Shown here piece after piece: positions 4,685 through 48,458 of a stretch of DNA of 64,000 bases; position 1 is the first letter of the stretch; the number at the start of each line of letters is the position of its first letter. The position numbers and the translations under genes were made by a program. The notes beneath the pieces were generated by a model. It had not been told where the DNA came from. It was given only the letters and a program-made list of their open reading frames with translations, and did not search any database. This DNA comes from Candidatus Promineifilaceae bacterium (GTDB taxonomy: Bacteria > Chloroflexota > Anaerolineae > Promineifilales > Promineifilaceae): the NCBI GenBank assembly GCA_041748655.1, contig JBGTCV010000089.1:7987-71986 (forward strand), written 5' to 3'.

Positions 4685-6416
<1,732 letters not shown>

Positions 6417-11727: not shown

Positions 11728-11865
11728 AGGGGGGCACAGAGCTGCACAAAGAATCTCTGTGTAACTCCGTTTAGCTCTGCGAAACTCTGTGTTCCTAAAA
11801 ATCGTTCAACTATCGTTGTTAATGGGTTGCGGGGAATGTTACAACAAAAACGGCCGTTTCTAAAA

Positions 11866-12273
11866 TCAAGGTTGGTGCGTGGGGATGACGGCCGTTCCCC
11901 TTTCCAACTGTTCCTGATCCAAAGATACTAACTCCGCGCCCAACTGTTCAGCGACGGCGACGTAAAGCGCGTCACAACCCCGCAGCCGATGCCTGGCGGC
12001 AATTTCCGCCGCCCGAACGCCGAGAAAATCATCCACAAGAACCAACTCAATCACGCCTAACGCCTGTATCTGGGCCAGAACATCTTCGGCCAGTTGCGTA
12101 TCACCGGTTGACCGGCTAATCGCGCCCACTACTTCTGCCAAAAATGGCAGTGGCGCTGCCAAAGGCGTGCCGCTGGCCAAAGCATCGTTGTACCATTTCT
12201 GGCTGGCCGCATGATTTGGCTCTTCTTTTTTCAACATGGCCACGTACACAGATGCATCCAAAACAACGGTCAT
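11866..12273 (-). CDS. vapC: PIN-domain toxin VapC
   Basis: MTVVLDASVYVAML N-terminus with the conserved Asp. 135 aa. There is a 4-bp ATGA overlap with the upstream antitoxin gene. Confidence 0.8.
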   Translation of the reverse strand: MTVVLDASVYVAMLKKEEPNHAASQKWYNDALASGTPLAAPLPFLAEVVGAISRSTGDTQLAEDVLAQIQALGVIELVLVDDFLGVRAAEIAARHRLRGCDALYVAVAEQLGAELVSLDQEQLERGTAVIPTHQP

Positions 12274-12545
12274 AAATCACGCCTCTGCTCTTGAACGGCT
12301 TCGACCGCAGAAAGCGGCGACTGCCACGCTTTGGAAACCCGCTCCGCCATTTTGTTTAATTCGCTCATTAGATGATTGATTTCTGATTCGTCGTATTTGC
12401 GGGGTTGTTCTTCGGCTAACGGCCGTAACACCGCCACCGGCTCGCCATGCAGCGTCACCACGTACTCAGCCCCCTCTTCCCGCACCGCCCGCACAATCTT
12501 CGAGGCATTATTCCTCAATTCCCGAATCCCGATTTTTTTTGCCAT
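12270..12545 (-). CDS. Phd/YefM family antitoxin
   Basis: MAKKIGIRELRNNASKIVRAV...EYVVTLHGEPVAVLRPL matches the Phd/YefM fold signature. Confidence 0.75.
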   Translation of the reverse strand: MAKKIGIRELRNNASKIVRAVREEGAEYVVTLHGEPVAVLRPLAEEQPRKYDESEINHLMSELNKMAERVSKAWQSPLSAVEAVQEQRRDL

Positions 12546-12779
12546 TTCGCCTCCAGAGCAGACCCCAAGGGTTTGCTATCGTTAATTGTGCCTGCTTAAA
12601 GAAAACCCTTGGGGTCTTCACAACTAGCAAAATTGTAGCTACATGTAGCCACAAGTCAATCCCCCTGCCACACAAACCGGGGCATTTCAGTAGTCCAATT
12701 TTAGGACGCGGACCAGCGCAGATGACGCGGAAGGTTGCTTATTATCTGCGCTCGTCCGCGTTCATCCGCGTCCTATTGG

Positions 12780-15578
12780 CTAATCATGTGGACTTTTTGA
12801 AAAACCCTGCCCCACAAACCAACGACGCACCAACTCAATTTGAAAGCGCAAGCCGTCGCCGTGTGGCTCGATGAGTTCGCGCTGCTGGAGTTGGGTGATG
12901 GTTTGGTTGAACACGGCCGTTTCCACCCCACCCATCTCCCTCTCCAACTCGCTGCGCGAAACCGCCTGCTTTTCGCCAGCCTTGGCCAGCAAGTGCAGCA
13001 CCTCCCCCCCTACCCCGTCCGCCTGGTTGCGCATGTCGGCGAAGAAAAAGCTGCCGTGCATGAGCGCTTCGGGTACGGCCGTCTCCACATCCGCCACCGT
13101 GGCCAAGCGACGCTGCGCCGGGGGCTGTTCGTTTTTCAGGGCCACAATCTCGGCGCAAAGGAGCTGCACCAGAAACGGATGCCCCCGCGTCAGGTCCAGC
13201 ACCCGCTGGCTGGCGGCCGGTTCGTAGCGCAGGGCAAAGTTCTGCACCGGCGCTTCCACCAGCTGCCGCGTCTCGTCCGGGTGCAAAGTGCCGATGTGTA
13301 CCACCTGCACGTTGATCAGGTAGCTGGACCAGCGCGAAAATTCGGCCAGCGTGTGCGAGCCGGAAAGCAGCACCTTAAATTGGGGCCGGTGCTGGATCAG
13401 ATGGCGCAGCATCCCCAGCACAATTTCCTCATCAAAACGGTGCAAGGACAGCACCCGCTCCAGCGCCTCAAATTCGTCCAGCATCAGCAGCGCGGTTTGG
13501 CCACCCAGCGCCGCCTCCACCCCGTCCAGCCATTCGTCAAAGCGGGTGAACGGGTCGTCGTGCAGCTGCTCACGGCTGAGCGGCGGCAGCGCCACGCCCC
13601 GCTGCCGTTTGGCCGACTGCACCATGCTGCGGGCCACGTTGTACAAAAAGCCCGCCTCATCCTGCGCCCGCGAAGCCGGGCCCTGCAAATCGACAAACAG
13701 CGGCACGATACTGCTGGGCAGCAGCCGCCCCAAATTATTGAGCAGCGACGTTTTGCCCACACGCCGCTGGCCGTAGAGCAGCAGCGGCGGCTGGCGGCGG
13801 TCGAGCAGCAGCTGCTCAATCCGGCTGCTCACGTCCTGCCGCCCGATGAAAATCGCCTGCTCCGCCGTCAGCGGCACGCCGATGATGTATGGGCTGTCGA
13901 TCTCCTGGCGCAGTTCGGCTTCCTCGGCCAATCGCGCCCCCTTTTCGCCGATGATCTGCCGCCAGCTGGCTGCAATCGGGCGGAAGCGGGCGGCGTATGG
14001 CTCATTGCTGCGCGTTAATTCCCGAAGGAGCCCATCCAGCCGGTCCTCGACGGCGTGCAGGGCGAGGCGCCGGTTGTAGGCGCTCTCCTGCTGCAAGGCG
14101 GCGGCCACGTCGCTGCTGAGGCGGCTGAAGCTGCGCAGCAGGGCGCTGGCCGGGCCAACCAGATCCCCCGCCGCCAAACCGGGATGCACTTCGGCGATCT
14201 GAACAGCCGTTTTACACCGTTCCAACTGCCGCGCATCCAGCTCAATCTGGGCCGCCTGGGCTGCCCAACGCTGCCGCGTACTGCTCAAATAGGCCATTGC
14301 CGTGCGCCCTTCAGCCAGATTTTTTTGGATGGTGAGCAAAATATGGGCATCTAAATTCAGCAGCGGCAGCCGCTGAAACTCGTCCCAAAAGGCGGAATGC
14401 CAGCGCAGCAGCGGCCGTTTCTCTTTCTGGTCCGCCCGCTGCACATCCAGTTGGTACAAAATTCGGTTCCAGACCAGCAAAAAGGGGTAAAGCAGCACTG
14501 GCCGCCACCACGCCAGGGTCAATCCCAGCAAAATTCCGGCCAGACCAAACCACAAAAATGGCCCGTACGCCGTCCCCTCGGTGGCAAACAAAAAGAGACC
14601 CGCGCCGCTGCCCAGCGATCCGGCCAGCCCGCCCGCCCAGGTACCCGCAATCTTCTCGGCCAGGACGTAGGGCAGGGCAAAGAGTGCCGCCACAAAAGCG
14701 ATAAAGGCCAGCGCCTGGACCAGGCCACCCACGACTGCCGATGCATCGGCTTGTGTACTTGGTAACCCACCTGCCAGCCAGACGGCCGTTCCCACCAGCA
14801 ATCCCGCCAAACCACCCCGCCGCCAGCTCTGGCTGCGCCAGCCCACGGCCAGGCCAAACGGCAGCGCCGTCAGCAGCGCCGTCGCCCAGACCCCTTCCAG
14901 CAGCCGCGCCAAAAAGCCCGCCGCCAGCCCGATGAAGATGCCCACCACCATGCCGCTCACCTGCCGCAAAACGGAGACGCCGGGAACGGCCGTTTCCTGC
15001 ACCATCTCTTCCCGCGTTACCCCCACCCCCACGCCATAGGCCAACCCACCCGCCAGCCCGCTGGTCAGGCCGATCAGGCTGCTCACCACCACGTCTACCG
15101 CCAGGGGTACGCCGTTCAGCGTTAGATCGCCCGCCGCCCGCAGCAGCAGCGCCCCGCCCAACCCCAGCGTAAAACCGGTGGCCATGCCCACCGTCACGCC
15201 AATGGCCACGCTGCCCGCAATGCTGGCCGCCAGCCCCACAATCAGCCCCACGGCCACGCCCAGCATGACGCCCAGCAACAGCGTGTTAGACGGCACACCC
15301 AGCAGCCAGAGCAGCAGCCCCAGCAGCAGCCCAACCAGCAGGGGCCAGGCGAAAAAAGTCATGAGGAGGAAGCGGAGAACGGCCGTATTGCCCCACTGCT
15401 GCCGCTGCAAATCGGCCAGGCTAAAATAGGGGGAGAGGGTACTGTCGAGCCGTTTCAGGTGGTTGCGCCAGGCCGAAGGGTGAAAAAAAAGCCAAAACAG
15501 CAGCCGCACGCTGCCGGTCAGCAAATTGCCGGGCAGGGTTGGGGCGTCGGTGTAGCGGTCGCGTAAGGTATCACTCAT
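12780..15578 (-). CDS. Polytopic membrane protein fused to a coiled-coil region and a PF01637-type (archaeal-ATPase-like) P-loop NTPase domain with a C-terminal winged-helix-like tail
   Basis: The N-terminal ~400 aa are glycine-zipper-rich TM helices. The middle is Q/A/R-rich coiled coil. The motif IFIGRQDVSSRIEQLL...LLLYGQRRVGKTSLLNNL is the FxGRExEL ... GxRRxGKTSLL signature of the ATPase_2 family. Walker B LLMLDEFE. Confidence 0.6.
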   Translation of the reverse strand: MSDTLRDRYTDAPTLPGNLLTGSVRLLFWLFFHPSAWRNHLKRLDSTLSPYFSLADLQRQQWGNTAVLRFLLMTFFAWPLLVGLLLGLLLWLLGVPSNTLLLGVMLGVAVGLIVGLAASIAGSVAIGVTVGMATGFTLGLGGALLLRAAGDLTLNGVPLAVDVVVSSLIGLTSGLAGGLAYGVGVGVTREEMVQETAVPGVSVLRQVSGMVVGIFIGLAAGFLARLLEGVWATALLTALPFGLAVGWRSQSWRRGGLAGLLVGTAVWLAGGLPSTQADASAVVGGLVQALAFIAFVAALFALPYVLAEKIAGTWAGGLAGSLGSGAGLFLFATEGTAYGPFLWFGLAGILLGLTLAWWRPVLLYPFLLVWNRILYQLDVQRADQKEKRPLLRWHSAFWDEFQRLPLLNLDAHILLTIQKNLAEGRTAMAYLSSTRQRWAAQAAQIELDARQLERCKTAVQIAEVHPGLAAGDLVGPASALLRSFSRLSSDVAAALQQESAYNRRLALHAVEDRLDGLLRELTRSNEPYAARFRPIAASWRQIIGEKGARLAEEAELRQEIDSPYIIGVPLTAEQAIFIGRQDVSSRIEQLLLDRRQPPLLLYGQRRVGKTSLLNNLGRLLPSSIVPLFVDLQGPASRAQDEAGFLYNVARSMVQSAKRQRGVALPPLSREQLHDDPFTRFDEWLDGVEAALGGQTALLMLDEFEALERVLSLHRFDEEIVLGMLRHLIQHRPQFKVLLSGSHTLAEFSRWSSYLINVQVVHIGTLHPDETRQLVEAPVQNFALRYEPAASQRVLDLTRGHPFLVQLLCAEIVALKNEQPPAQRRLATVADVETAVPEALMHGSFFFADMRNQADGVGGEVLHLLAKAGEKQAVSRSELEREMGGVETAVFNQTITQLQQRELIEPHGDGLRFQIELVRRWFVGQGFSKSPHD

Positions 15579-15588
15579 TTCGGTTATC

Positions 15589-15652
15589 GGTAGGTCAGTA
15601 TTCAGTAGGTCAGTATTCAGTAGGTCAGTATTCAGTGGGTCAGTATTCAGTA
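15589..15652. repeat. 4.3 tandem copies of a 15-mer (plus-strand GTAGGTCAGTATTCA) starting 11 bp upstream of the membrane-ATPase start codon
   Basis: Perfect 15-nt periodicity; one copy has a single A to G change. Confidence 0.85.
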
Positions 15653-15838
15653 GAATGGCAGCTTCTTGGAAAAGTCTGTTTTCTTTTTAATGGGACACAG
15701 ATGGTTCGGCTGCGCTCACCACAAGCTTTCACAGATGAACACAGATTTTACTCAATTTTAGGTCAAATCTGTGTCCATCTGTGTGCGCAACTTGCGCCCA
15801 TCTGTGTCCAATTTTTCTTTCTCCGACAGGCCGCTAAC

Positions 15839-15890
15839 ACTGATAACTGATTACTGACCACTGATTACTGCTCACTGATTACTACTCACC
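15839..15890. repeat. About 3 tandem copies of a related 15-mer (CACTGATTACTGNNC) in inverse orientation to the 15589 array; overlaps the SARP gene stop
   Basis: The reverse complement CAGTAATCAGTG is close to the TCAGTATTCAGTAG unit of the other array. Confidence 0.75.
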
Positions 15891-17513
15891 GGCCATCCGC
15901 CGCAGCGGTTCCAGCTGGCGCAGCGCTTCTTCGCGCCAATCATCGCCCGTCTCGCCTTCGCTGAGGCTGAGCAGCCGCTCGCGGCACAAGATTTGCAGCG
16001 GCATGGGCCAACGGCCGCTTTCCATCAAAATCCAATCCACATCCCTGGGCGCAAATTTGAGCGGTGCGGTGGCGATCAGGCTGCGTGCCCCTTCTTCGGA
16101 GAGTGGGCCGAGAACGGCCGTATAGCCAAAAATGTTAAAAAAGGGTGATCCCAATCCCTGATGCTGGGCCAGTACGTCCGGCGGCTGGGCGCTGGAAAGC
16201 ACAAAACCGAGATTGCCGTCCACCTGATTGGTTGCCAGGGAGCGCAAACTTTCCCAAAAGGCATCATCCAGCTCCGGGTAGCGGGTTAGGGCCACCCCAA
16301 TTTCGTCGAACAAAATAACGGTGGGCTGGTTGAGCTGCTCGCTCACCACGTCCATAAAATTTTCCAAATCGCACGATTCAGGCACATCCAATTCCATTTC
16401 GGTCAGCAGCGTGCGCAGCAGCGTCTCCTGCCGCCCCAGCCGCGCATCCTGGAAATCCACAAAAATCCAGCGGGTGCCGCTCGCCTGCGGCAGCCAATCG
16501 GCCAGCCGCAAATAATGCAGCAGCGATGTCTTGCCGCTGCGGCGCGGCCCGATGATCGCCGCGTTTTGCAGCGGGCGCTGCCGCAGCATCAGCCCCAGCC
16601 GCTTCAGCTCCCGCTCCCGGCCAAAAAATTGCGCCGGATTGGTGATGGGCGGCCCAGCGATAAAGGGTGATTTGGTGACAGGGTGACGGCGTTCTGCGAA
16701 CGCTTGTGGCATGGTAACATTTTGTCCGGTCACCTTGTCAAATTCCCCACTGCGGATTTGCTGGTGGAGGACGGCCGTTTCCGCCGAAACCGCCACCCCC
16801 AGCTCAGCAGCCAGCAGCTGCTGGCACTGCTCAAACTGGTGCAGCGCGGCCGGGCGCTGGCCAGAAAGGGCCAACAGCTGCATCAGCAGGCGGTGGCTCG
16901 CCTCGCGGGTTGGTTCCAGAATGAGCAGCTGGCGGGCGGCGGCCACCCCCTCGTCGTACCGGCTTTGCTGCCGCAGCTGGCTGGCCCAGGCGTCGTGGGC
17001 GATAACGGCCTGGTTGTGGAACCAGCCGCGCTGTTCTTGCAGCCAGTTGTCGAATTCTGGAGCCTGCCGGATGTAAAACTCCTGCAAAAATTCACCGCGA
17101 TAGAGCTGAACGGCCGTTTGCCAGCCCCCGCGCTCTTTTTCGCCAATGTGAATGGTTTGTTGGAAAACGGCCGTGTCCAGCCAAACGGCCGCATCCGGGT
17201 TCAACCCCACGGTTTGATGGCTGATTTGCAGGTACGGCGCCAGCAGCTGGCGCAGCCTGAGGATGACGCCGCGCAGGTTGCGCCGGGCGTCGGACTCGGG
17301 CAGTTCGCCCCAGAGCAGGTTGGCTAAGGTGTGGCGGGAATGGGAACGGCCTGCACTGAGCGGCTCAACGGAGTTGAGCCTGCCGAAGTGGCCGCTCACC
17401 GCCAGGTAACACAACAGCGCCTGCGCCTTGCCCGAATCCAGCCCGATCAACGGTTCATCATCGATTGTGATCTGTAATGGCCCCAGCAGAGCCAGTTTCA
17501 GTACTTTTGTCAT
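15882..17513 (-). CDS. SARP (AfsR/DnrI/RedD)-family transcriptional regulator fused to a PF01637-type P-loop NTPase domain
   Basis: The N-terminal LALLGPLQITIDDEPL OmpR-type winged helix is followed by a BTAD-like helical region. Then FFGRERELKRLGLMLRQRPLQNAAIIGPRRSGKTSLLHYL (ATPase_2 signature) and Walker B ILFDEIG. Confidence 0.8.
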   Translation of the reverse strand: MTKVLKLALLGPLQITIDDEPLIGLDSGKAQALLCYLAVSGHFGRLNSVEPLSAGRSHSRHTLANLLWGELPESDARRNLRGVILRLRQLLAPYLQISHQTVGLNPDAAVWLDTAVFQQTIHIGEKERGGWQTAVQLYRGEFLQEFYIRQAPEFDNWLQEQRGWFHNQAVIAHDAWASQLRQQSRYDEGVAAARQLLILEPTREASHRLLMQLLALSGQRPAALHQFEQCQQLLAAELGVAVSAETAVLHQQIRSGEFDKVTGQNVTMPQAFAERRHPVTKSPFIAGPPITNPAQFFGRERELKRLGLMLRQRPLQNAAIIGPRRSGKTSLLHYLRLADWLPQASGTRWIFVDFQDARLGRQETLLRTLLTEMELDVPESCDLENFMDVVSEQLNQPTVILFDEIGVALTRYPELDDAFWESLRSLATNQVDGNLGFVLSSAQPPDVLAQHQGLGSPFFNIFGYTAVLGPLSEEGARSLIATAPLKFAPRDVDWILMESGRWPMPLQILCRERLLSLSEGETGDDWREEALRQLEPLRRMAGE

Positions 17514-17537: not shown

Positions 17538-17559
17538 GGATCAACGCTGGATCAACGCT
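17538..17559. promoter_or_regulatory. Tandem 11-bp direct repeat GGATCAACGCT x2, 25-45 bp upstream of the SARP start codon (divergent region shared with the TadE-like gene)
   Basis: Exact 11-bp period direct repeat, the spacing typical of SARP/OmpR-type binding sites. Confidence 0.35.
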
Positions 17560-17747
17560 AAAATGACAGCCCTTTGTTAATCTATACCCAGTGACTTAAT
17601 AAATTGCGCTTATTCCCTATGAAGGCAAAACGAAACGCACCCATAAAACCGTGCGTTTTGCTACCCTCACACGTCAATCCAGTATACCGGAAACAGCAGC
17701 TTGATGGAACTGATGGCCAACCAACAGATGCAAAGTGAACTGAAATC

Positions 17748-19832
17748 ATGATCAAATTCAAAAAACGATTCAAAGACTCCCCCGGACAAGCCCTGGTCGA
17801 ATTCGCCCTCATTATCTCTGTCCTCCTGGCGATGATCTTTTTGATTATTGAAAGCGCCCGCATTTTGTGGGCCTGGAACACCGTGCAAAACGCCGCCCGA
17901 GAAGGCGCGCGCTACGCCATCACCGGGCAGGCCGAAGGGCCAGATTGTCCCGTTGATTTTGGTCAGCCCAAATTTGTAGATGGTGGGCGTGATGTTTGTA
18001 CCAATTTACGGGTTGCTTCCATCATTAACAGAACCCACACCAGCCTGTCTGGCTTACCCTTAAACGAAGAGTCCGTTACGTTTGAAGATGGTCAATATTA
18101 CAATATTGAAATTTGGGGCGTGGATGAGTTTGGGCAGTTGCAATACGATTTTGGCGGCATCCCCAGCAATCCGGTTATTGTGCGCGTCACCTATCGGGTG
18201 CCCATCATCACCCCGTTCTTTTCAGCTATTTTGCCTTCTATTCCCGTATTCGGGCAGGAAACCTTGAACAATGAAACGTTTGGCCAGTTGGGTGGCGCCA
18301 GCAGCAGCGAAGGGGCCGCCCTGCCGCCAAACCTGCCACCGGTACCCACGCCGGGCGTTACCCCTTCGCCCACGCCTACCCCCCTCCCAACCGACACGCC
18401 AACGCCGGGGCCAACCGAGACCGCCTCCAGCACGCCAACCTTTACCCCAACCCCGCGCTGTGATCTGGAGTTTGAAGGAGGAGCCATTGCCGGGAATAAC
18501 TTTGTTTTTGTGACGGGTGATGTAGGCATTAACGTGACCATTATTAACCTTTCCACCGGGCAAACCCTGGGCTCGGGCACGCTGGGTGGACCGTTTAATG
18601 GACATGCCTGCGCAGGTTTTAGCGCCATCATTTTAAATCCGGCACTGACGGTGGCCAATCTGGGCCATGTGTTGGTAGCGCAGCAAACAGACGATAGCAC
18701 CAACAACGACACAACGATTGTCGTGGGCACGCCGCCAACGGCTACTCCGTCGCCTACACAAACCCTGGTGCCCACCAGCACCCCCAGCCCCACGCCGCCG
18801 CCAACGCTCACGCCCACGCCCAGCGGCCCATATATCACCATTGCGCCCAACTGTGGGCCGGGGCCCAACATTCAATTTATCTTGCAGGCATACAACTGGC
18901 CTGTTAATCAGTCGGTCACTTTTTTCTGGGAAGGTGTTTCCCAGGCGACCTATCAGGCAAACGCGCACACCGGCACGTTTACGCTGGGCTGGTCCTTCTC
19001 TGGGCTTGGCAATGGCACTTATACGGCCAGCGCCCGGTCTGGCGTCAATGGGGCAACCGCCTCGGCGCTTTATACCGTCCCCTGCGCAGGGCAGCCCACG
19101 CCGACAGGGGCGCCAACAAACACACCGGTTCCTGCTGATCTGGTAGCCATTGGCCCCCCCACCCTGCTGAGCACCCCCCCCATTGTGGCCTACCAGCCGG
19201 TGCAGTTCTCCGTCAACATCACCAATACGGGTGACATCGCCGTAAATAACCAATTCTTTGTCGATATTTATCTGGATCCCACCACCATTCTGGCGGATCG
19301 CATTCCGCTGACGGAGAGTGATGGTTATTCGGCCGTGAGTGGCCTGCCCGGTGGCGAAAGCCGAACGGTCATCATCAACGCCCCGTTTGGCTTTGAGAAC
19401 AGCCCAACCAACCATCAGGTGTATGGCATGGTTGATTCGGTTTTGCAGATTCAGGAAGTGAGCGAAACAAACAACGTCACCAATCCGCGCACGGTGTTGA
19501 ACGTTACCCCGGCAGCGACACCCACACCCACACCCACGCCAAACATCGTTGGGGATAGTGAGATTAGCGGAGTGGTATTCGCACTTAGAGGGACTTACCT
19601 AAGACAATTCCGAGCCGATGTTTTCTTAACTGACGAAAGCACTTCCCAAATAGTAAGTAGAACAACTACAGATGAAAATGGTTTCTACATTTTTGATACC
19701 GTTCCGGTCGGAACATACACCGTGCACGCCTGCATAGTGATTGACAATTCACAATATTTTGGCCTTCGTACTGGTCGAACACCGCCTAATCCGTATGTAG
19801 ATATTTTTGCTGCACCAGGAGCTTGCCCTTAA
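17748..19832 (+). CDS. Giant TadE-like (Flp pilus assembly pseudopilin-like) protein with Pro/Thr linkers, a CARDB-like domain and a C-terminal carboxypeptidase-regulatory-like domain
   Basis: N-terminal GQALVEFALIISVLLAMIFLIIESARILWAWNTVQNAAREGARYAITG is the TadE signature. PT-rich linkers. VAYQPVQFSVNITNTGDIAVNNQFFVDIYLD resembles CARDB. C-terminal FLTDESTSQIVSRTTTDENGFYIFDTVPVGTYTVHA. Confidence 0.7.
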   Translation: MIKFKKRFKDSPGQALVEFALIISVLLAMIFLIIESARILWAWNTVQNAAREGARYAITGQAEGPDCPVDFGQPKFVDGGRDVCTNLRVASIINRTHTSLSGLPLNEESVTFEDGQYYNIEIWGVDEFGQLQYDFGGIPSNPVIVRVTYRVPIITPFFSAILPSIPVFGQETLNNETFGQLGGASSSEGAALPPNLPPVPTPGVTPSPTPTPLPTDTPTPGPTETASSTPTFTPTPRCDLEFEGGAIAGNNFVFVTGDVGINVTIINLSTGQTLGSGTLGGPFNGHACAGFSAIILNPALTVANLGHVLVAQQTDDSTNNDTTIVVGTPPTATPSPTQTLVPTSTPSPTPPPTLTPTPSGPYITIAPNCGPGPNIQFILQAYNWPVNQSVTFFWEGVSQATYQANAHTGTFTLGWSFSGLGNGTYTASARSGVNGATASALYTVPCAGQPTPTGAPTNTPVPADLVAIGPPTLLSTPPIVAYQPVQFSVNITNTGDIAVNNQFFVDIYLDPTTILADRIPLTESDGYSAVSGLPGGESRTVIINAPFGFENSPTNHQVYGMVDSVLQIQEVSETNNVTNPRTVLNVTPAATPTPTPTPNIVGDSEISGVVFALRGTYLRQFRADVFLTDESTSQIVSRTTTDENGFYIFDTVPVGTYTVHACIVIDNSQYFGLRTGRTPPNPYVDIFAAPGACP

Positions 19833-21176
19833 ATGAAAAAGAGAGTGGTCTATTTAACTTTTGCATTTGCATTACTAATGGTTTTCAGCCAAATAAATAT
19901 CGGTACGGCCGTTGCTGAACCGGATGCCCCCTTGGCCCCTTCTGCGGCGCCAAACTGGAATAATTTGGGAGTGATCTCCCAAAGCAGCGGTATTACATCT
20001 GCTATTACCCCGGCTATTGCTGCTTCCAGTACTGGAAGCAAGGTGATTGTTGTTTACAACGGGGTTATTAATAACAATCTAGATAATCAAGATGTGTTCT
20101 ATACAACTTCGACTAATTACGGCGCAACCTGGCCAACAAAAGCTCGCATACATCAAAGCATCGGAGACCAATTAAATTCCACCTTTGTAGATGTGACAAT
20201 TAGCCCGAATAATAAAGGACATGCTGTTTGGATCGAAAAACTTAACAGCATTCCCAGGCTTGCATACAAATATGAAGACAACTGGGGCAATAACACCACA
20301 AATCTGGTGATAATTTCTTCAGTGCCATCATTAACAGACACATTATCAGAACCTAAAATTGTCGCCAAAAGCAATAATCGGCTCGACGTTGTTTGGGCAG
20401 AAGGCACAGCTGCGACAGACATCAATATTTTTCATGCTTACTCCACTAATGGTGGTAGCAGCTTCACTGGTAAAACGGCCGTTGCCCAAACAATCCCTTC
20501 CTCCAGATCGCCGAGTATAGCAATTGACGCTGCAGGAAATTACCACCTTGTCTGGGAAGAATTAACCAACCCCTCCAGGATTTTATATTCTCGTGGGGTA
20601 CCATCTGGCAATAGCGTCATCTGGTCTGTTCCACCGATAAACATTTCAGTCAGGAGTATTCCAGGCAATACCACGGCCGCAAGGCAACCCAAAATATATG
20701 CCGACGGGAACGTCCTGCATGTAACATACGCTAATTTTATCAACAAGCAGCAGCAATTTGTTCACCATTTACAGTGCAATTCAGGCTGTACCAATGCAGC
20801 AAATTGGGTGTCGGTGGGTAATCCGATCTCTGGACAAGTTCTTTCAGCAAAAGCATCAGATCCATTTGACCTTATTTCTACCATTGGCCAGATTGGAAGA
20901 TGCACCTATGTTTATTTCCACGGCATCCAGGGTGACAGCAGTAATGAAAATAACCGGGAAAGAATTTGGGGCACAAATAGCTGTGGCAACTGGGCAGCCA
21001 GCGTACGTGATCACGTGACGACAGCGGACGTACGCTCGATCAATCCGGCAATGGTTTCGGCAAATAATTGGTGGCTGTTTATGGCTTATGAACAAGTAAA
21101 TACCAATGCAAGTCTGCGAGAAATTTATTTTGTGCGCAACCAACCGGCTATTTATTTGCCGACAATATTAAAGTAA
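19833..21176 (+). CDS. Secreted BNR/Asp-box repeat protein (sialidase-like beta-propeller)
   Basis: Signal peptide followed by Asp-box-like repeats TSTNYGATW, YSTNGGSSF and further S-x-x-G-x-x-W motifs. Confidence 0.5.
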   Translation: MKKRVVYLTFAFALLMVFSQINIGTAVAEPDAPLAPSAAPNWNNLGVISQSSGITSAITPAIAASSTGSKVIVVYNGVINNNLDNQDVFYTTSTNYGATWPTKARIHQSIGDQLNSTFVDVTISPNNKGHAVWIEKLNSIPRLAYKYEDNWGNNTTNLVIISSVPSLTDTLSEPKIVAKSNNRLDVVWAEGTAATDINIFHAYSTNGGSSFTGKTAVAQTIPSSRSPSIAIDAAGNYHLVWEELTNPSRILYSRGVPSGNSVIWSVPPINISVRSIPGNTTAARQPKIYADGNVLHVTYANFINKQQQFVHHLQCNSGCTNAANWVSVGNPISGQVLSAKASDPFDLISTIGQIGRCTYVYFHGIQGDSSNENNRERIWGTNSCGNWAASVRDHVTTADVRSINPAMVSANNWWLFMAYEQVNTNASLREIYFVRNQPAIYLPTILK

Positions 21177-21182
21177 TCAACC

Positions 21183-21860
21183 ATGAATCGATTAGAGTGG
21201 ATTTTAGGCATTATTTTGGTGGTTTTACTACTGGTGGTAGGGGCGCTGTCGCTGACCTTCTGGTTCCGCAATGACCGCACGGCCGTTTCCTCCCCCAACA
21301 CCGCCGCCAATTCTGCCACCATCATCGCCCAGCGCGCCGACGACATCGCCCCTACGCCGGAATACGACGGCCGTTCCGCCATTGTCGCCTACGCTGCTGC
21401 TCAAAACCGGGCACTGGAGTGGCAGCCAGACGCCCAGCTGCTCAACACCCAGGCCACCTGGCCCCAGGGAGCTACCGCCGACTATTTGCGCCAGGGCACA
21501 GAAAGCTGGGGCTTTACCTTTTACTCGCCCGCTGCCGGGCGCATCGCCCTCTTTTCGGTGGTGGCAGACCAGGTTTCCCTGATCACCGAAGGGGACCACA
21601 CCCAAACCGAGCCGCTCCTTTCGGCCAGCGGCTGGAATCTGGACAGCCACGAAGCGGTTCGTGTTTTCCTGGCGGGTGGTGGCAGTACGTTTATGGCCGA
21701 ACAGGGAGTCACAACCATGACAATGGCTTTATTGGCGAGTGATGGGGAGGAAAACGGCCGTCTCGAATGGCAGCTCGCTCTCTTTTCACTCCAAACCGGA
21801 CAGGCCTTCACCATGCGGCTAGATGCCACTTCCGGTGAAATCCTCTCCACCAACCCGTAA
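21183..21860 (+). CDS. Membrane-anchored hypothetical protein (single N-terminal TM, extracytoplasmic domain)
   Basis: LGIILVVLLLVVGALSLTFWF TM helix. No recognizable family. Confidence 0.4.
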   Translation: MNRLEWILGIILVVLLLVVGALSLTFWFRNDRTAVSSPNTAANSATIIAQRADDIAPTPEYDGRSAIVAYAAAQNRALEWQPDAQLLNTQATWPQGATADYLRQGTESWGFTFYSPAAGRIALFSVVADQVSLITEGDHTQTEPLLSASGWNLDSHEAVRVFLAGGGSTFMAEQGVTTMTMALLASDGEENGRLEWQLALFSLQTGQAFTMRLDATSGEILSTNP

Positions 21861-21915
21861 TCGTCAGGCTTATCGTAAATCTAAAATCGTAAATCGTAAA
21901 TTCAGAGGCAAAACA

Positions 21916-23178
21916 ATGAAACAGCAACAAACAACCCCAAAACAGTCTCAACGCGGCCAAAGTCTGGTCGAAGTCGCCCTCTTTTTCCCCATCTTTATCC
22001 TGTTACTGGCGGGGCTGGTCGAGGTTTCCCAGCTGCTGGTCACCCAAAACCGGGTCAGCAGCGCCGCCCGCGCCGCTACCCGCTTCGCCTCCAATGGTGG
22101 GCAGGATGAAGGGATTCCCACCTCCGTCCTCAACACCGTTACCCAGACGCTGGAAATTGACGAAAATGTTTGGGATATCTGGAGCATCCGGGCTACTGTC
22201 AATGCCAACGGCTCAGATTTTGTACAGTGGCAGTTTACCCACGTCTATGGCGTCTCCAACACGGTTCGTGCCCCATCGGTAAGTGAGCAAGCGATTCGCA
22301 CCCGCGTACTGGAAGAACTCCAGCGGGATGAACTTGATAACCCGTCAAATACCATCGCACAAAATCTGCAGATCGTGGGCACCTACGCCATTCATGACGT
22401 CGATTCCATCCTGGGATTGGATGCCATGTCCCAACTGGCTGGCTTCTCTTCTATCAACGCCCTCAGCGTCATGCGCATTACCACCAATACCCAGAATGTC
22501 ACCAATGGCTGTTCCGCCTTTCCTATTGCGGTTGAAGAAGGTGCACGTTCTGTCACTAATCCTTTGCTTGGCGGTTCAAATCCATACCCAAGCAATTTCT
22601 CCTATCCGCCCAATCCTCCAGTTTATAATTCCTTTGCTAATCACCGGGACGATACACCACTGCTGCACGCACGAGAAGGGGATGTTTTCCGAATTTGGAA
22701 TGGCGCGGGCAGCGGCAACTTTGGCTGGTTGGTCTGGAATACCGGGGTCTCGGCCAATGCAAACACCCTGGCCAACAGCCTGTCGTGGCCGGGGGACAGT
22801 ACCAATTACAACCCCTGCAGCGGTCCCGGCTGCCCTGGGGGCCAAGGCATCCCTGGTTCCGGATTTGATACAAACGTGCCCGGCTATATTGAACCCGACG
22901 ACCCCACTGATCAGTCCCTGCACATAAATGATTGGGTGGCAGGCAGTACGGGAACTGTAAGTTCCAACGACGTAAATACCATCCTTAAAGGGCATATAGA
23001 CCGGGGGCGGACCCTACGGGTGATTGTTTGGAAGGCACCGGCCACCGGCACCGGCAGCAACGTCCGGTATCAAATCTCGGGCTTCGCTATCGTTCGTCTG
23101 ATTGGTTACCATCTTCAACAAGATTGGATTCTGGCCGAGTTCATCCGCTGGGACGACTCCTGCGGCCAGCTAAATTAA
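21916..23178 (+). CDS. TadE-like pseudopilin-like protein with a large C-terminal extracellular domain
   Basis: From the internal Met: MKQQQTTPKQSQRGQSLVEVALFFPIFILLLAGLVEVSQLLVTQNRVSSAARAATRFAS is TadE-like. The longer upstream ORF extension overlaps the previous gene. Confidence 0.65.
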   Translation: MKQQQTTPKQSQRGQSLVEVALFFPIFILLLAGLVEVSQLLVTQNRVSSAARAATRFASNGGQDEGIPTSVLNTVTQTLEIDENVWDIWSIRATVNANGSDFVQWQFTHVYGVSNTVRAPSVSEQAIRTRVLEELQRDELDNPSNTIAQNLQIVGTYAIHDVDSILGLDAMSQLAGFSSINALSVMRITTNTQNVTNGCSAFPIAVEEGARSVTNPLLGGSNPYPSNFSYPPNPPVYNSFANHRDDTPLLHAREGDVFRIWNGAGSGNFGWLVWNTGVSANANTLANSLSWPGDSTNYNPCSGPGCPGGQGIPGSGFDTNVPGYIEPDDPTDQSLHINDWVAGSTGTVSSNDVNTILKGHIDRGRTLRVIVWKAPATGTGSNVRYQISGFAIVRLIGYHLQQDWILAEFIRWDDSCGQLN

Positions 23179-23297
23179 CGAATCACGACGCCTTTCGTGC
23201 CACGCGCGGCGTGGTACGAAAGGCCAAGATGCTCTGCATCATATAACAGATATTAATCGAACCAAAAATCGTCGGATGATCAAACAGGGTTAAGCAT

Positions 23298-25223
23298 ATG
23301 AACCGTATCAAACAGTTTATCCAACAAAAACAGCAGGCCAATGACCAGGAAAAAGGGCAAAGCATCGTTCTCATCGCCCTGATGATGGTGGCCATCATCG
23401 CCTTCGTCGGCATTGCCGTCGATGTCGGCTTCATCTTCGCCCGTGGCTCCCAGCTTCAGGCCGCCATCGACTCGGCTGCGTTGGCGGGTGTCGTCGAACT
23501 CCCTGGCTGGAGCGAAGGTAATGCAGGCAATCCAGCTCTGGAAGGAAACGCCCGCACCAGATCGGCCCAATTCCTCAACGCCAACAACATGCCTGTTTCG
23601 GTCACCGCCTCCATCAACATCCCTAACAACATCGATGTCTCCACCACGCCGCTGGGCGCTACCCAATACGCCGTCACCGCTACCTGGCCTGTGGAAACCT
23701 ACTTTCTTAAAGTGATCGGCTTCCGCGAACCGATCAACCTGACCCGCTCCGCTACCGCCGCCATTTTCTCGCTGGCCGATATTTACGCCAGCCGCCGGGT
23801 GGAAGATGGCGTCCTCAGCACCTCCAACCAGGGCATCTTTGGCCCCGCCTCCTGCACCCACATGGGCGACCCGTTCTCCCCCATCATCAGCGCCTGGGAA
23901 CCCGGCCCCTATACCTACACTTACCGTATCTACATTCCGCCCAACTACAGCCACAATGTGGTGCGTGTGGAGCTGTTCGACCCAGACTCGATCAATACAG
24001 CTCTCAACACAGCCACCATTAACCGCTCCTTCACAGCAATCAACAATGGATTGGGCGCAATTGATTCCAAAACGTGCGGCACGCATGGCGGCAACGCAAG
24101 CCAGCATCAGCCCTGCCTGCTGCGTACCGATGAACTTACTTTAGTCAATAATGCACCAAATCTGGATTTAGACCAGGTGAACCCCTACTGGTTTGTTCGC
24201 ATTGATGAAAACCGTCGGCCGCCTACTACCCCGGGAGGCGGCTGTGGCGAAAATGGCTACAGGGTAGAAAACAACACCCAAACCCGCTACAGCCTCTCTT
24301 ACTTCGCCCAAACGCCAGGAAGTTCACCTGTAAAGATCCCCCTCGTCAGCTACTTCGGCCAGACTGGTGATGCACGCGACACGGTCATGTATGGCGGCTC
24401 TCCTGGAGACCATCTAACCGATTTACGCTGGGTTTCGCCGGGAACGGCCGTTCCCTTCTCCACCGTCGATGATCCCGGCGTGGCCGTACCCGCCACGCCC
24501 CAAACCATTAGCAGCTTTGAAGTCAACCTCACCACCGACGTGCCCAACATGGTGGTAGACCAAAATACCGGCGCGCGGTATATCTACCTGGACGTACAGG
24601 CGATGAGCGGCTCTTCGGAAAATGGCTTTGAAGTGTGGGCCGGCCCCCCCACTTACGTCAATACCGTCCCCAGCGACGTCAACGCCCGCAACCTGCACAT
24701 TCTCAACAACCCGGGTGCCCACTCGTCCCAAGGCGTCACCGTTTACGGCCTGGGCAACCTGCCCATGAACTCCAACTTTGGCGAGATCGTTGATGTACCG
24801 CTGCTTTACGTCGGCCCCGATATGATTGGCCAATCTATCCAGGTGAGTATGTTCGATACAGATTCTGGGGCGGCTCCTCCTCTCGTCTTTTACTTCGACT
24901 CGCTTGCCTTTACCCCCAGCACCACCAATCCGCTGGGCTATAATCCTGCCCTAACCGACTGGGCCCGTTCTTTTCACGTGAGTGGGCAGCCAGACCCAGA
25001 AGGCCAAACCTTCCCCTGCGTGCTAGGCAGTTGTGATAATCGCTGGGTCAATTACACAATTACCGTTCCAGGTAATACTGACAACTGCGATTACAACAAT
25101 CAAACCATGGCCGACTGTACCCCCTTCTTTGGTGGTCGTCTTATCGCCCGCTACCGTGCCGGTTTCTCAGACACCTACGGCTGGCAAATCAGGCTCGAGG
25201 GGCTGCCCTATTTGGTGAAATAA
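23298..25223 (+). CDS. TadG-like (putative Flp pilus-assembly TadE/G-like, PF13400-type) protein with a large C-terminal domain
   Basis: N-terminal QEKGQSIVLIALMMVAIIAFVGIAVDVGFIFARGSQLQAAIDSAALAG. 641 aa. Confidence 0.65.
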   Translation: MNRIKQFIQQKQQANDQEKGQSIVLIALMMVAIIAFVGIAVDVGFIFARGSQLQAAIDSAALAGVVELPGWSEGNAGNPALEGNARTRSAQFLNANNMPVSVTASINIPNNIDVSTTPLGATQYAVTATWPVETYFLKVIGFREPINLTRSATAAIFSLADIYASRRVEDGVLSTSNQGIFGPASCTHMGDPFSPIISAWEPGPYTYTYRIYIPPNYSHNVVRVELFDPDSINTALNTATINRSFTAINNGLGAIDSKTCGTHGGNASQHQPCLLRTDELTLVNNAPNLDLDQVNPYWFVRIDENRRPPTTPGGGCGENGYRVENNTQTRYSLSYFAQTPGSSPVKIPLVSYFGQTGDARDTVMYGGSPGDHLTDLRWVSPGTAVPFSTVDDPGVAVPATPQTISSFEVNLTTDVPNMVVDQNTGARYIYLDVQAMSGSSENGFEVWAGPPTYVNTVPSDVNARNLHILNNPGAHSSQGVTVYGLGNLPMNSNFGEIVDVPLLYVGPDMIGQSIQVSMFDTDSGAAPPLVFYFDSLAFTPSTTNPLGYNPALTDWARSFHVSGQPDPEGQTFPCVLGSCDNRWVNYTITVPGNTDNCDYNNQTMADCTPFFGGRLIARYRAGFSDTYGWQIRLEGLPYLVK

Positions 25224-25407
25224 CCCACCAGCAGGAATACCAATGTCTTAAAGACATTGGTATTCCTTTGTAGTACACTGTTTTTTATTTGTACTGGAAT
25301 TTACTCAGGTGCAAGGCACTGGCCTCGGGAGTTTCAATTGGTTGGAACCGTTTGGCCAGTGCCTCGCACCACTCTTACTGGAATTTAATGAATCAAAAGG
25401 CATCTCA

Positions 25408-26838
25408 ATGAAATCAACTCACCAACGCACCCACAACCAACCCGCAGAAGCGGGGCAGGGCTTTGTAGAATATGCACTCATTCTCATTCTTGTCGGCCTG
25501 GCCGTGGTGCTCGTCGTCAGCCTGATGCAGCCAGCCATTGGGGATGTTTTTTCGCGCTTTGTGGCCCAGGCACCGGTGGCTCCCCCCTCGCTGCTGAACT
25601 ACACGCCGCCGCCAACCTTTACCAGCACGCCCACCGTAGATCCGCTGGCATCGCCTACGCCCATTCCGTCAATCACCCTGGTACCCAGCCAGACGCCCAC
25701 GGCCACCACCACCTCTGCGCCCAGCAGCACGCCAACCGCCACCTCAACCGCTACGGCCACGGCCACGGTGCCCTGTGCCTACCCGGCGCACACGCTGCCG
25801 GCCAACGGCATGGTGCGCGTAGAGATGGAAAACTTCCGCTGCGGCGGCCCTGGGGTGGCCTTCTTTGACAACGACGGCGGCCCGGGCAGCAGCCCCTACC
25901 GCACCGACGTCGGCAAAGACGGACCCGACCTGGAAACCACATCCGACACCGGCGGCGGTTACAATGTGGGCTGGGTGAGCGACGGGGAGTGGCTGGAGTA
26001 TCAGGTTAATGCCCCGCAAACGCTGGGCTACACCTTTCTAATTCGCCACGCTTCCAACCAAAACACCAACCCGCGCATTCGCATTACCGTCTCGCAGGGC
26101 CAGCTGCAGTACAATTCCGTTATTTATACGCTGGGACCCACCAACGGCTGGCAAGATTGGAAAAGTACCATGATCGGCCCGATTACGCTGTTTGCCGGCA
26201 GCAACACCGTGCGCATTACCATGGAAACCGGCTCGGGCAACTACAATTATTTTGAAGTTCACACGTACGTACCCACGGCCACACCCACACCGGTAACGCC
26301 AACGCCGACATCAACCAGCACGCCAACGGCCACCAACACGCCGACGGCAACACCCAGCTTACAGCTGTACCTTGAAGCTGAATCAGGAAACGGCCTTACT
26401 GGCTCGTGGTTTACAGCTAATAGTAGTTCTGCTTCAGGTGGTAAATATATCTATTGGGGAGGCAGCACTAACACGAGTACTACTCCGCCGACTAACCAGG
26501 TGACCTATTCATTTAACGCACCAAGCGCGGGCTTGTACCGGGTTTATCTTCGGGTAAATAATTCAGGCAGCGCCAATCGTGATTCAGTTTGGGTCAGGAT
26601 TGATGGCGCAACGGTTAACCAATCACAAAATATTACCCGTTCTGATGGGTGGGTAAATTTCAACAATATGGTCCTGGCAAACTCCTTTAACTGGAGACAG
26701 GTTCACAATGGTGACAGCGGTAATGCGTTGGTCCAGTTCTATCTACCGGCTGGATCCCACACGTTACGCTTTGCCTATCGAGAGGCACAGACCTGGATTG
26801 ACCGAATATTCATAACAAACACGAGTAGTTTGCCTTAG
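25408..26838 (+). CDS. Flp-type pilin-like N-terminus fused to two CBM-like (CBM6/35-like) beta-sandwich domains through PT-rich linkers
   Basis: AEAGQGFVEYALILILVGLAVVLVVS matches the Flp prepilin G/xxxxEY processing motif. Two ~130-aa modules (GMVRVEMENF...WLEYQVNAP...; LYLEAESGNGL...YRVYLRV...) resemble carbohydrate-binding modules. Confidence 0.55.
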   Translation: MKSTHQRTHNQPAEAGQGFVEYALILILVGLAVVLVVSLMQPAIGDVFSRFVAQAPVAPPSLLNYTPPPTFTSTPTVDPLASPTPIPSITLVPSQTPTATTTSAPSSTPTATSTATATATVPCAYPAHTLPANGMVRVEMENFRCGGPGVAFFDNDGGPGSSPYRTDVGKDGPDLETTSDTGGGYNVGWVSDGEWLEYQVNAPQTLGYTFLIRHASNQNTNPRIRITVSQGQLQYNSVIYTLGPTNGWQDWKSTMIGPITLFAGSNTVRITMETGSGNYNYFEVHTYVPTATPTPVTPTPTSTSTPTATNTPTATPSLQLYLEAESGNGLTGSWFTANSSSASGGKYIYWGGSTNTSTTPPTNQVTYSFNAPSAGLYRVYLRVNNSGSANRDSVWVRIDGATVNQSQNITRSDGWVNFNNMVLANSFNWRQVHNGDSGNALVQFYLPAGSHTLRFAYREAQTWIDRIFITNTSSLP

Positions 26839-26895: not shown

Positions 26896-26948
26896 AAAAT
26901 GCGCGTATAGATTGCGTCAGCTTCTCAAGCTGGCGCTTTTTTTTGTTT

Positions 26949-47110: not shown

Positions 47111-47301
47111 CTGATAACCTATTCCATATCATTATTAACCACTTTTATCACCTTACAAGTCAGATGCTTGCACGCTGAACAAGAATTTTTAACGCAAAGA
47201 TGCAAAGGAACAAAGCCGCAAAAGGTTTTCTTGGCATCTTTACCTACTTTGCGCCTTTGCGTTAATTTTTTTCTGGCTTGTCCAGTTTAGGAGAATATTT
47301 C

Positions 47302-48411: not shown

Positions 48412-48458
48412 AATGAAAATTTTACCGCAGGGGGCGCAAAGATCGCAGGGGTAAACCC

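Follow-up and report, generated by a model that had tools for sequence, protein, structure and literature searches.

The described systems closest to the gene cassette examined in this study are the tip complexes of Tad (type IVc) pili. In Myxococcus xanthus, these complexes (Kil Tips) are trimers of TadE/F/G-like proteins named KilL, KilM and KilN, in which KilN bears a large and variable head of unknown fold, and one of the tip clusters also encodes a small Flp adapter, KilO (PMC12075869). The proposal that Tad tips of other bacteria are likewise customised by variable domains has already been made (PMC12075869, Herrou et al. 2025). We analysed a 64,000-nucleotide stretch of DNA, hereafter called the window, from a Candidatus (Ca.) Promineifilaceae bacterium of the phylum Chloroflexota (assembly GCA_041748655.1, contig JBGTCV010000089.1, positions 7,987 to 71,986 of the forward strand). 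The window carries six co-directional open reading frames (ORFs) on its plus strand, at positions 17748-26838, which we call A to F and which constitute a six-gene operon with its own regulator. We assign a probability of roughly 60% to the reading that the product of this cassette is a Tad pilus tip and initiation complex of filamentous Anaerolineae, built from subunits in which functional modules are mounted on pilin carriers (modular pilins).

Other described systems provide further points of comparison. CpaL of Caulobacter crescentus and TadG of Aggregatibacter actinomycetemcomitans are proteins of ~600 residues that have a PF13400 N-terminus, no glutamate at position +5 (Glu+5), an internal head of ~470 residues and a conserved extreme C-terminus (PMC12607857, PMC13533445). 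A subunit of a type IV filament uses its Glu+5 to contact the subunit above it, and only the apical subunit (GspK, PilK or CpaL) is without this residue (PMC13533445). The modular pilins of the monoderm Streptococcus sanguinis carry a von Willebrand factor A (vWA) module (PilB) or a lectin (PilC) at the filament tip, where the minor pilins make up a complex that binds glycans (PMC8179133, PMC9934059). These belong to the type IVa pilus (T4aP) class and have the IPR012902 N-terminus; the terms ‘Tad’ and ‘Flp’ occur zero times in the survey of modular pilins, and Flp/TadE/TadG-class N-termini lie outside its scope (PMC8179133). Within the phylum Chloroflexota, the sets rcpC-tadZABC, tadEEG and flp are listed as distinct in Chloroflexales (Gaisin et al. 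2020, PMC7332563).

The cassette begins with A (17748-19832, 694 amino acids), a TadE-type modular minor pilin, whose stop codon is immediately adjoined by the start codon of B (19833-21176, 447 amino acids). B is a BNR/Asp-box (sialidase-like) beta-propeller protein with a Sec-type signal peptide. It is followed by C (21183-21860, 225 amino acids), a single-pass membrane protein, and by D (21916-23178, 420 amino acids), another TadE-type modular minor pilin whose start at 21916 is backed by the alignment of its orthologs. E (23298-25223, 641 amino acids) is a TadG/CpaL-type minor pilin of Pfam family PF13400, and F (25408-26838, 476 amino acids) is an Flp-type pilin module fused to a carbohydrate-binding module (CBM) of the CBM6/35 type. 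All six genes lie on the plus strand, and the gaps between them measure 0, 6, 55, 119 and 184 nucleotides.

A genome scan with E returned 27 loci, one for each species, with E identities of 34-74%. These loci come from Chloroflexota metagenome-assembled genomes (MAGs) assigned to Ca. Leptofilum, Promineifilaceae, Ardenticatenaceae or simply ‘Anaerolineae’, except for one that is binned as Zixibacteria. The order of a minus-strand regulator followed by plus-strand A-B-C-D-E-F was recovered by tblastn across the 27 loci in essentially every case with sufficient flank. Synteny of the six genes, the regulator and a candidate operator extends across 27 species, with identities of 30-80%, and the reading frames are mostly intact, with split or truncated ORFs in a few MAG loci. 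Such synteny suggests that the genes, the regulator and the operator form one functional unit under selection. An earlier reading of this DNA (the original prediction) had proposed four pseudopilin-like genes at the positions of A, D, E and F, with a BNR/Asp-box protein and a small membrane protein interleaved among them. These genes are all present as described: A and D match TadE and E matches Tad above the Pfam cut-offs, F is Flp-like by homology, and B and C are both seen. The four-gene cluster of that reading has to be revised to a six-gene operon plus regulator, because B and C persist across the loci as well as the pilin-like genes do.

The N-termini of A, D, E and F each contain a class III processing site of the form G/Q, at which cleavage is predicted, and Gly-1 and Gln+1 are invariant in all orthologs with an intact N-terminus (two 5ʹ-truncated D orthologs and one F ortholog were left out of the scoring). 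The site of A is G/QALVEF, with Q+1, E+5 and F+6 invariant in 22 of 22 sequences, and that of D is G/QSLVEV, with Gln+1 and Glu+5 invariant in 26 of 26. F has G/QGFVEY (QG[FLI]VEY in its orthologs), in which Glu+5 and Tyr+6 are found in 19 of the 20 orthologs scored, and this corresponds to the Flp motif G/XXXXEY. The site of E is G/QSIV[LI]I, where position +5 is Leu or Ile in 28 of 28 sequences and never Glu. The conservation of G/xxxxEY and TadE processing sites, which had been named beforehand as something to check, therefore holds for the G/Q of all four proteins and for the Glu+5 of A, D and F. A set of one Glu-less TadG-type protein and three proteins with Glu+5 is the signature of an ordered tip, not of generic anchors. 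Confident AlphaFold2 models of D (predicted local distance difference test score, pLDDT, 85.7) and E (pLDDT 88.8, predicted template modelling score 0.81) each comprise an alpha1 helix of 45 residues, a small alpha/beta pilin-like domain and then a head.

Protein A matches TadE (PF07811) at residues 13-55 with an E-value of 8e-15 (55.1 bits versus a cut-off of 22.9), and CARDB at residues 477-578 with an E-value of 3e-8 (34 bits versus a cut-off of 22.7). Its layout consists of a leader, the alpha1 helix and a pilin-like domain that extends to residue ~190, after which come four beta-sandwich modules split by Pro/Thr (PT)-rich linkers. Among 20 orthologs of A, TadE recurs in 20, CarboxypepD_reg in 18, CARDB in 16 and SdrD_B in 14, and Big_9/cadherin modules appear in two. 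The accessory domains proposed in the original prediction are thus borne out for CARDB in A and CBM_6 in F, whereas CarboxypepD_reg/SdrD_B (about residues 600-694 of A) stays below the cut-off in the window protein and emerges from the orthologs. The PT-rich linkers are visible in the translations of both A and F. TadE and TadF proteins usually have ~150-200 residues, a size that A (694 residues) and D (420 residues) exceed, and neither A nor D resides in a tad locus.

For D, the TadE match has an E-value of 9e-11 (42.2 bits versus a cut-off of 22.9), and its orthologs carry precomputed PF07811 assignments. The alpha1 helix spans residues 14-59, the pilin-like alpha/beta domain extends to residue ~190, and the remainder is a 225-residue head that finishes with an invariant DSCGQ end. 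A thioester or autoprocessing function for the invariant NGC...DSCGQ residues of D was considered and set aside in favour of a simpler explanation, a disulfide linking one end of the head to the other. E matches Tad (PF13400) with an E-value of 1e-7 (32.3 bits versus a cut-off of 22.3); its homologs also have precomputed PF13400 assignments, and several sources name them TadG. Its layout comprises an alpha1 helix (21-65), a small pilin-like domain, a head of ~475 residues (155-633) and a tail with the sequence GLPYLVK, which is conserved as GLPYL[VI][KR] in 25 orthologs. The E head is not a vWA domain with a MIDAS (metal ion-dependent adhesion site) motif, and it has no clear match among solved structures. 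The idea that E is a vWA-type TadG was rejected for this reason.

A homolog search with E also uncovered a family of secreted paralogs, 770-967 residues in length, that have no pilin N-terminus. The representative P0083 begins with a signal peptide, followed by a region (residues 40-513) with 62% identity to E 155-633, a second region (residues 502-747) with 56% identity to D 176-419, and then PKD domains. An E-type head leading directly into a D-type head in one secreted chain is found in P0083 and at least 15 related clusters. Because this natural Rosetta-stone fusion joins the two heads, it predicts that the heads of E and D bind each other, and the sequences therefore predict that the two act as one composite module. 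Paralogs of the P0083 type keep the head and are without both the pilin module and the last eight residues of E (EGLPYLVK). This pattern fits a tail that belongs to the pilin module, as does the C-terminal strand of CpaL. In three genomes, the P0083-type paralog occupies a conserved non-pilus locus (DUF456/DUF4349 ... uvrC), and two of the three also carry the cassette. Loci with the fused E-type and D-type heads include L028, at positions 10001-12838 (Ca. Leptofilum proximum), L034, L035 and L036. In PABI01 the paralog is followed by a 1222-residue CBM96 protein.

F has the processing motif and hydrophobic helix of Flp pilins, and its size and Pfam score are atypical for Flp/Fap. Flp precursors typically measure ~50-90 residues; F has 476, its orthologs have 334-875, and relatives found in representative searches reach 1518. 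To place its N-terminus, the first 75 residues of F were compared by phmmer with 1.84 billion representative proteins, and two classes of matches resulted. The first comprises ~80 long proteins (180-1518 residues) that match at their own N-termini and constitute the F family. Proteins of 48-100 residues make up the second; these are 46-60% identical to F residues 11-54 (E-values from 4e-8 to 3e-6), and all 10 that were tested match Flp_Fap with 23-32 bits. This homology to short Flp_Fap pilins implies that F contains a complete Flp pilin module. One such short relative belongs to a canonical flp-SAF(CpaB-like)-tadZ-T2SSE-T2SSF-T2SSF locus (L030).

The Flp module of F (residues 1 to ~55) is followed by an APVAPPSL segment and a PT linker, a CBM6/35 domain (~133-285) and a second beta-sandwich (~330-470). 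The CBM_6 assignment is supported by Pfam (E-value 4e-16) and by the Protein Data Bank (PDB) CBM6 entries 2y8k and 5la2 (E-value 3e-21). Across species, the Flp module and the APVAPPSL linker are kept and the cargo changes, with CBM6/35, F5/8C, PKD, PA14, InlB B-repeats, GH115_C and Golvesin_C all represented. Long F-type proteins from metagenomes again lie directly 3ʹ of an E-type gene. We found no paper that describes an Flp pilin fused to a carbohydrate-binding module.

Several side observations concern the relatives of F. The flp-SAF-tadZ-tadA-tadB-tadC genes of L030 span positions 10001-16310 and surround a short Flp that is among the closest to the F N-terminus; the T2SSE gene in this locus is split into several small called ORFs, probably as a result of long-read indel errors. 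The contigs with the nearest short Flp genes, L030 and L031, share no tblastx segment with the window. A CAP protein is encoded beside the short flp of L031, and it has no tblastx similarity to the CAP protein of the window. Two relatives, P0256 (418 residues) and P0268 (182 residues), contain four and two tandem Flp-like units, respectively, each with a polar leader and G/QGxVEY. By their sequences, these resemble poly-Flp precursors, from which a prepilin peptidase could release several pilins.

When set beside the known systems, the cassette most resembles the Kil Tips. Both have TadE/F/G-like minor pilins encoded away from the machinery, one subunit with a large variable head, C-terminal extensions on another subunit, an Flp in the tip cluster and many predicted disulfides. 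The feature by which Herrou et al. (2025) recognise a Tip, three TadE/F/G-like minor pilins with a variable distal head and possibly remote machinery, is found here as well. A tip-linking role for F would correspond to that of the adapters KilK and KilO. The differences are nevertheless substantial. There is no detectable orthology, and the kil/tip hidden Markov models (HMMs) are confined to Myxococcota (PMC12075869). One cassette is present per locus, as opposed to four paralogous Kil tip clusters, and it includes the extra non-pilin genes B and C. Its Flp has 334-875 residues and a lectin cargo, compared with 59 residues in Myxococcus. Finally, its host is a filament of the monoderm-type Chloroflexota with no link to a type III secretion system (T3SS*), whereas Myxococcus is a predator.

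Of the features that mark the apical subunit in the tip of CpaJ, CpaK and CpaL, E has the N-terminus, the missing Glu+5, the size and the conserved C-terminal tail, but not the fold of the head. A and D, in turn, resemble CpaJ/CpaK and TadE/TadF as two Glu+5-bearing, TadE/F-type partners of a TadG/CpaL-type protein, although the partners in Caulobacter and Aggregatibacter have ~150-200 residues rather than 420 and 694, and the cassette is not in a tad locus. Like the pilins of S. sanguinis, the cassette proteins would present a functional module on a pilin carrier, but four modular pilins are combined here in one operon. Within the phylum, the Chloroflexales tadEEG plus flp set has the same TadE+TadE+TadG+Flp composition; this comparison is one of composition, since the listing gives gene names only and no sizes, heads, B or C genes, regulator or cargo-bearing Flp (PMC7332563). 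We conclude that the cassette is a variant of the recently described Tad tip and modular-pilin type and not a wholly new type. The architecture had been called poorly characterised in the original prediction, a judgement that no longer applies: a TadG/CpaL protein of ~600 residues with an internal head of ~470 is the norm (PMC13533445, PMC12607857), and modular pilins have been described (PMC8179133). The cassette stands apart in having an Flp pilin that bears cargo, a TadG head that is not of the vWA type, a paralog with fused heads, and genes for a propeller and a membrane protein interleaved among those for the pilins.

These features can be combined into a model of assembly. A, D, E and F would be inserted through their N-terminal hydrophobic helices, and an unlinked TadV/CpaA-type peptidase would cut each of them after the Gly of G/Q. 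E, with no Glu+5 and with the TadG/CpaL layout, would take the apical position, and the Glu+5-bearing A and D would pack beneath it via an alpha1 bundle. F would join this tip to the Flp fibre as an adapter, or it might be interspersed along the fibre, in either case holding its lectin on a Pro/Thr tether. Beneath the tip complex, an unlinked TadZABC platform and ATPase would polymerise the major Flp. The tip would then display the composite E/D head, the flexible A stalk of ~500 residues of immunoglobulin (Ig)-like modules, and the CBM6 or another species-dependent lectin of F. B, as a secreted non-catalytic propeller that may dock by its C-terminal strand, and C, as a membrane protein, would be accessory subunits. 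Such a structure might serve adhesion to polysaccharide-rich surfaces such as the floc matrix, other filaments, and plant or algal polymers.

The original prediction had viewed these proteins as pilus-tip adhesins on a pseudopilin chassis. This view is favoured by the processing sites, the Glu+5 pattern and the TadE+TadE+TadG+Flp set. The original prediction had also offered a non-pilus use of the TadE fold as an anchor, which is the less favoured of its two alternatives, and its interpretation as a whole is partly supported. Several observations weigh against a tip complex. The E head differs from the vWA domain of canonical TadG/CpaL, and a non-pilin propeller and a membrane protein are interleaved in the cassette, as opposed to the three minor pilins of known Tad tips. 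F of the window has no Pfam match to Flp_Fap (PF04964), two of its orthologs reach 16-17 bits versus a cut-off of 32.2, and a cargo of 420 residues on an adapter might not fit the compact Flp fibre. In addition, neither the 64 kb window nor the flanks of the 27 loci contain the Tad ATPase, the platform or the prepilin peptidase, and the presence of such machinery elsewhere in the genome rests on the literature for related lineages.

Two types of search bear on the last of these points. Pfam scans of the window covered ORFs of at least 150 residues judged to be genes (most long ORFs) and three shorter ones, without any match to T2SSE, T2SSF, CpaE/TadZ, A24 peptidase or secretin. Scans for the Walker A and Walker B motifs of T2SSE and for the peptidase motif GxGD[VAI]K were likewise negative in the window and in the 27 loci, where flanks of up to 10 kb on each side of E were available as the contig allowed. 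The statement in the original prediction that no Tad secretion ATPase or prepilin peptidase lies near the cassette is therefore upheld. This absence is not an anomaly: the Chloroflexales sets are distinct (PMC7332563), and in Myxococcus three Tip clusters out of four are encoded at a distance from the machinery (PMC12075869). Given these precedents, the separation of tip genes from the machinery is normal. Most Anaerolineae MAGs from wastewater are reported to encode CpaB/E/F and TadB/C (PMC10746286, PMC9942424).

The absence of linkage between the machinery and the cassette, both in the window and in the 27 loci, also speaks for an unlikely alternative in which the proteins are displayed at the surface without an extended pilus. 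A, D, E and F would then be class III signal anchors or would form a short pseudopilus or bindosome-like platform that presents glycan-binding modules. Analogies exist in the sugar-binding proteins of Sulfolobus, which have class III signal peptides, and in the pseudopilus of the type II secretion system (T2SS). The cargoes are of types characteristic of polysaccharide capture, a plain secreted protein likewise contains the E and D heads, and the long PT tethers of A and F would span the thick, multilayered Chloroflexota envelope. Nonetheless, a strict Glu+5 pattern with one Glu-less TadG-type subunit is needed by an ordered tip and not by a mere anchor, and F retains a complete Flp module that is 46-60% identical to fibre-forming Flp pilins. 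Because a pseudopilus needs the same Tad-type machinery, this alternative differs from a Tad tip mainly in the length of the filament.

A second alternative, which we regard as improbable, places F at the centre of a distinct filament type. F would be the major subunit of a thick, lectin-coated fibre that is primed by A, D and E and borrows the Tad motor. In the window and the flanks of the related loci (up to 10 kb on each side of E), no Flp-type gene other than F was found; its Flp module is complete, including Glu+5 and Tyr+6, and as the last gene of the operon, behind a 184-nucleotide gap, F might be expressed separately and at a high level. However, it is sterically implausible that each subunit of a thin Flp fibre bears a C-terminal cargo of 280-1460 residues, and the free exchange of cargo on a conserved fibre module is what would be expected of a low-copy adhesin. 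Moreover, an ordinary short flp lies beside tadZABC in related Chloroflexota (PMC7332563; the L030 locus).

The last alternative, that these are generic signal-anchors or decaying remnants in which the TadE/Tad/Flp similarity is a mere hydrophobic helix and the neighbours are unrelated, draws on the shortness of PF07811, PF13400 and PF04964 (43-47 positions, dominated by that helix) and on the fact that the globular heads obtain no family assignment, but it is very improbable and is contradicted, as is the refutation by a profile-less signal-anchor that the original prediction had foreseen, by matches above the curated Pfam cut-offs, by a polar leader, Gly-1, Gln+1 and Glu+5 that are conserved beyond hydrophobicity, by AlphaFold2 models in which a long alpha1 packs on a pilin-like sheet, and by the synteny of the whole cassette in 27 species with mostly intact frames.

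The BNR match of B is weak in the window protein, and BNR_2 is detected in 15 of its 22 orthologs (best E-value 1.8e-10). Its profile matches sialidases in the PDB with an E-value of 3.5e-5, over only ~55 residues of the Asp-box region. No invariant Arg is found among the 13 invariant columns of a 22-sequence alignment of B, so the catalytic Arg triad is not conserved and an active sialidase is unlikely; the candidate annotation of B as an active sialidase of glycoside hydrolase family 33 (GH33) was rejected on this basis. The C-terminus of B is conserved as YLPxIxK/R, with the pattern LPx(hydrophobic)3-K/R, and it resembles the LPYLVK/R tail of E.

A precedent for a propeller in a pilin operon is provided by the T4aP operon fimU-pilVWXY1Y2E, which, like the cassette, keeps minor pilins and a non-pilin beta-propeller together, the latter being the adhesin PilY1/PilC. 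PilY1 is held at the pilus tip by its last ~10 residues via beta-strand addition (PMC13533445). The propeller of PilY1 is of the IPR008707 type, whereas B is a BNR/sialidase-type propeller with no sequence homology to PilY1, and the suggestion that B might dock by a C-terminal strand as PilY1 does is speculation by analogy.

C begins with MNRLEWILG, in which R3, E5, W6, L8 and G9 are near-invariant in 24 orthologs. The Glu at position 5 is counted from Met1, with no leader. The extracytoplasmic part of C has a weak similarity to PepSY (sub-cut-off matches in 16 of the 24 orthologs, best E-value 1.2e-3). By analogy with the Glu+5 proteins, one might speculate that C is a leaderless pilin-like protein.

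A bolder form of the tip reading incorporates all six proteins into a glycan-grappling Tad tip that exceeds any described Tad tip, with B locked on in trans, C present as a leaderless subunit and F co-polymerised. We consider this version doubtful. B would be held by its LPx(hydrophobic)3-K/R strand and, by analogy, would give type IVc pili their first PilY1-like tip protein, while C would enter or chaperone the complex without processing by the peptidase. Co-polymerisation of F with the major pilin would yield a multivalent rope of lectins. The heads of E and D would represent a two-chain version of the secreted protein that was captured onto pilin carriers.

Expression of the cassette might be controlled by the divergent gene that lies upstream of A. 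This gene (15882-17513, minus strand) encodes a 543-residue regulator of the Streptomyces antibiotic regulatory protein (SARP) type, with a BTAD domain (Pfam E-value 1.7e-18) and an AAA/STAND ATPase part (AAA_16 and AAA_22), and it is syntenic with the cassette in every locus with enough upstream flank. Beyond it lies the gene for an nSTAND1/AAA NTPase of 932 residues (12780-15578, minus strand; Pfam nSTAND1 and AAA_22), which is 59-91% identical and syntenic in most loci and is co-conserved with the regulator. The intergenic region between the regulator and A contains a candidate operator, GATCAACGCTgGATCAACGCT (17539-17559, plus strand), which is a tandem repeat of the form GATCAACGCT-g-GATCAACGCT, with a 10-nucleotide repeat and an 11-nucleotide period. 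The repeat is unique in the window, with 0 occurrences expected by chance, and is kept in 16 of 16 aligned orthologous intergenic regions, including distant ones. Its slightly degenerate core pattern ATCAACGCTNGATCAACRC is found exactly in 11 loci, again including distant ones.

A conserved, -10-like TAATCT resides at 17578-17583, 18 nucleotides downstream of the operator, which places the proximal repeat at the position of a -35 element. SARP activators bind direct repeats with an 11-nucleotide period over the -35 position. By this analogy we infer that the operator is the site of the divergent regulator, which would activate the promoter via the tandem GATCAACGCT repeats. The 3ʹ end of the operon is likely marked by a terminator-like, GC-rich hairpin of 10 pairs followed by T8 (26914-26946, plus strand), 76 nucleotides past the F stop codon. 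Terminator-like sites are no more numerous in this region than chance would predict, and position and strength are the sole argument for this one. The 5ʹ leader of A also includes an insertion of ~55 nucleotides at 17610-17665, ATGAAGGCAAAACGAAACGCACCCATAAAACCGTGCGTTTTGCTACCCTCACACG, which none of the aligned orthologous intergenic regions shares and which contains the inverted repeat AAACGCAC...GTGCGTTT.

Filamentous Anaerolineae such as Ca. Leptofilum, Promineifilaceae and Ardenticatenaceae provide the backbone of the flocs in activated sludge, and soils and sediments also harbour them in abundance. To our knowledge, there is no genetic system in any of these lineages. The paper that named Ca. 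Leptofilum describes the mechanism of adhesion as still unclear (PMC10746286). The cassette is a good candidate for how filaments in sludge and soil adhere, and it offers candidate adhesins (F with its CBM6 or other lectins, the E/D head module and the Ig-like A stalk) along with a candidate regulatory switch. It would also extend the concepts of adaptable Tad tips and modular pilins to the Flp/TadE/TadG-class pilins of a monoderm-type phylum. In addition, the naturally fused E and D heads yield a prediction as to the tip heads that are in contact, and, given B, Tad pili might resemble T4aP in bearing a non-pilin propeller at their tips.

Genes downstream of the cassette differ between clades. 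In a distant clade (L010, L013, L014, L015, L018, L019 and L024-L027), a conserved, convergent secreted protein of ~600 residues is encoded ~100-700 nucleotides downstream of F. Also present there in this clade are a UvrD-like helicase, an AAA ATPase and a repeat protein of ~700 residues, none of which are pilus genes. At 6-8 kb downstream of F, a further paralog of the AAA part of the BTAD-AAA regulator is found in L010, L013-15, L018, L024, L025 and L027. In the clade of the window, these downstream genes are absent, and an ArsR-type gene and a major facilitator superfamily (MFS) gene occupy the position downstream of F.

The remainder of the window holds several features separate from the cassette. 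Overlapping ORFs on opposite strands at 4685-6400 encode 562 residues (plus strand) and 547 residues (minus strand), and the minus-strand ORF is without a Pfam match. A PIN-domain toxin and Phd/YefM antitoxin pair (11866-12545, minus strand) is located between an E1 dehydrogenase gene and the nSTAND gene. Two adjacent secreted-type proteins with SH3_3 repeats and a CAP domain are encoded at 47278-49622 (plus strand). A 1382-residue membrane protein with PMT_2 and YfhO glycosyltransferase-type domains (54050-58198, plus strand) is adjoined by a glycosyltransferase of the GT2 family (58235-59191), and this pair could constitute machinery for envelope or protein glycosylation.

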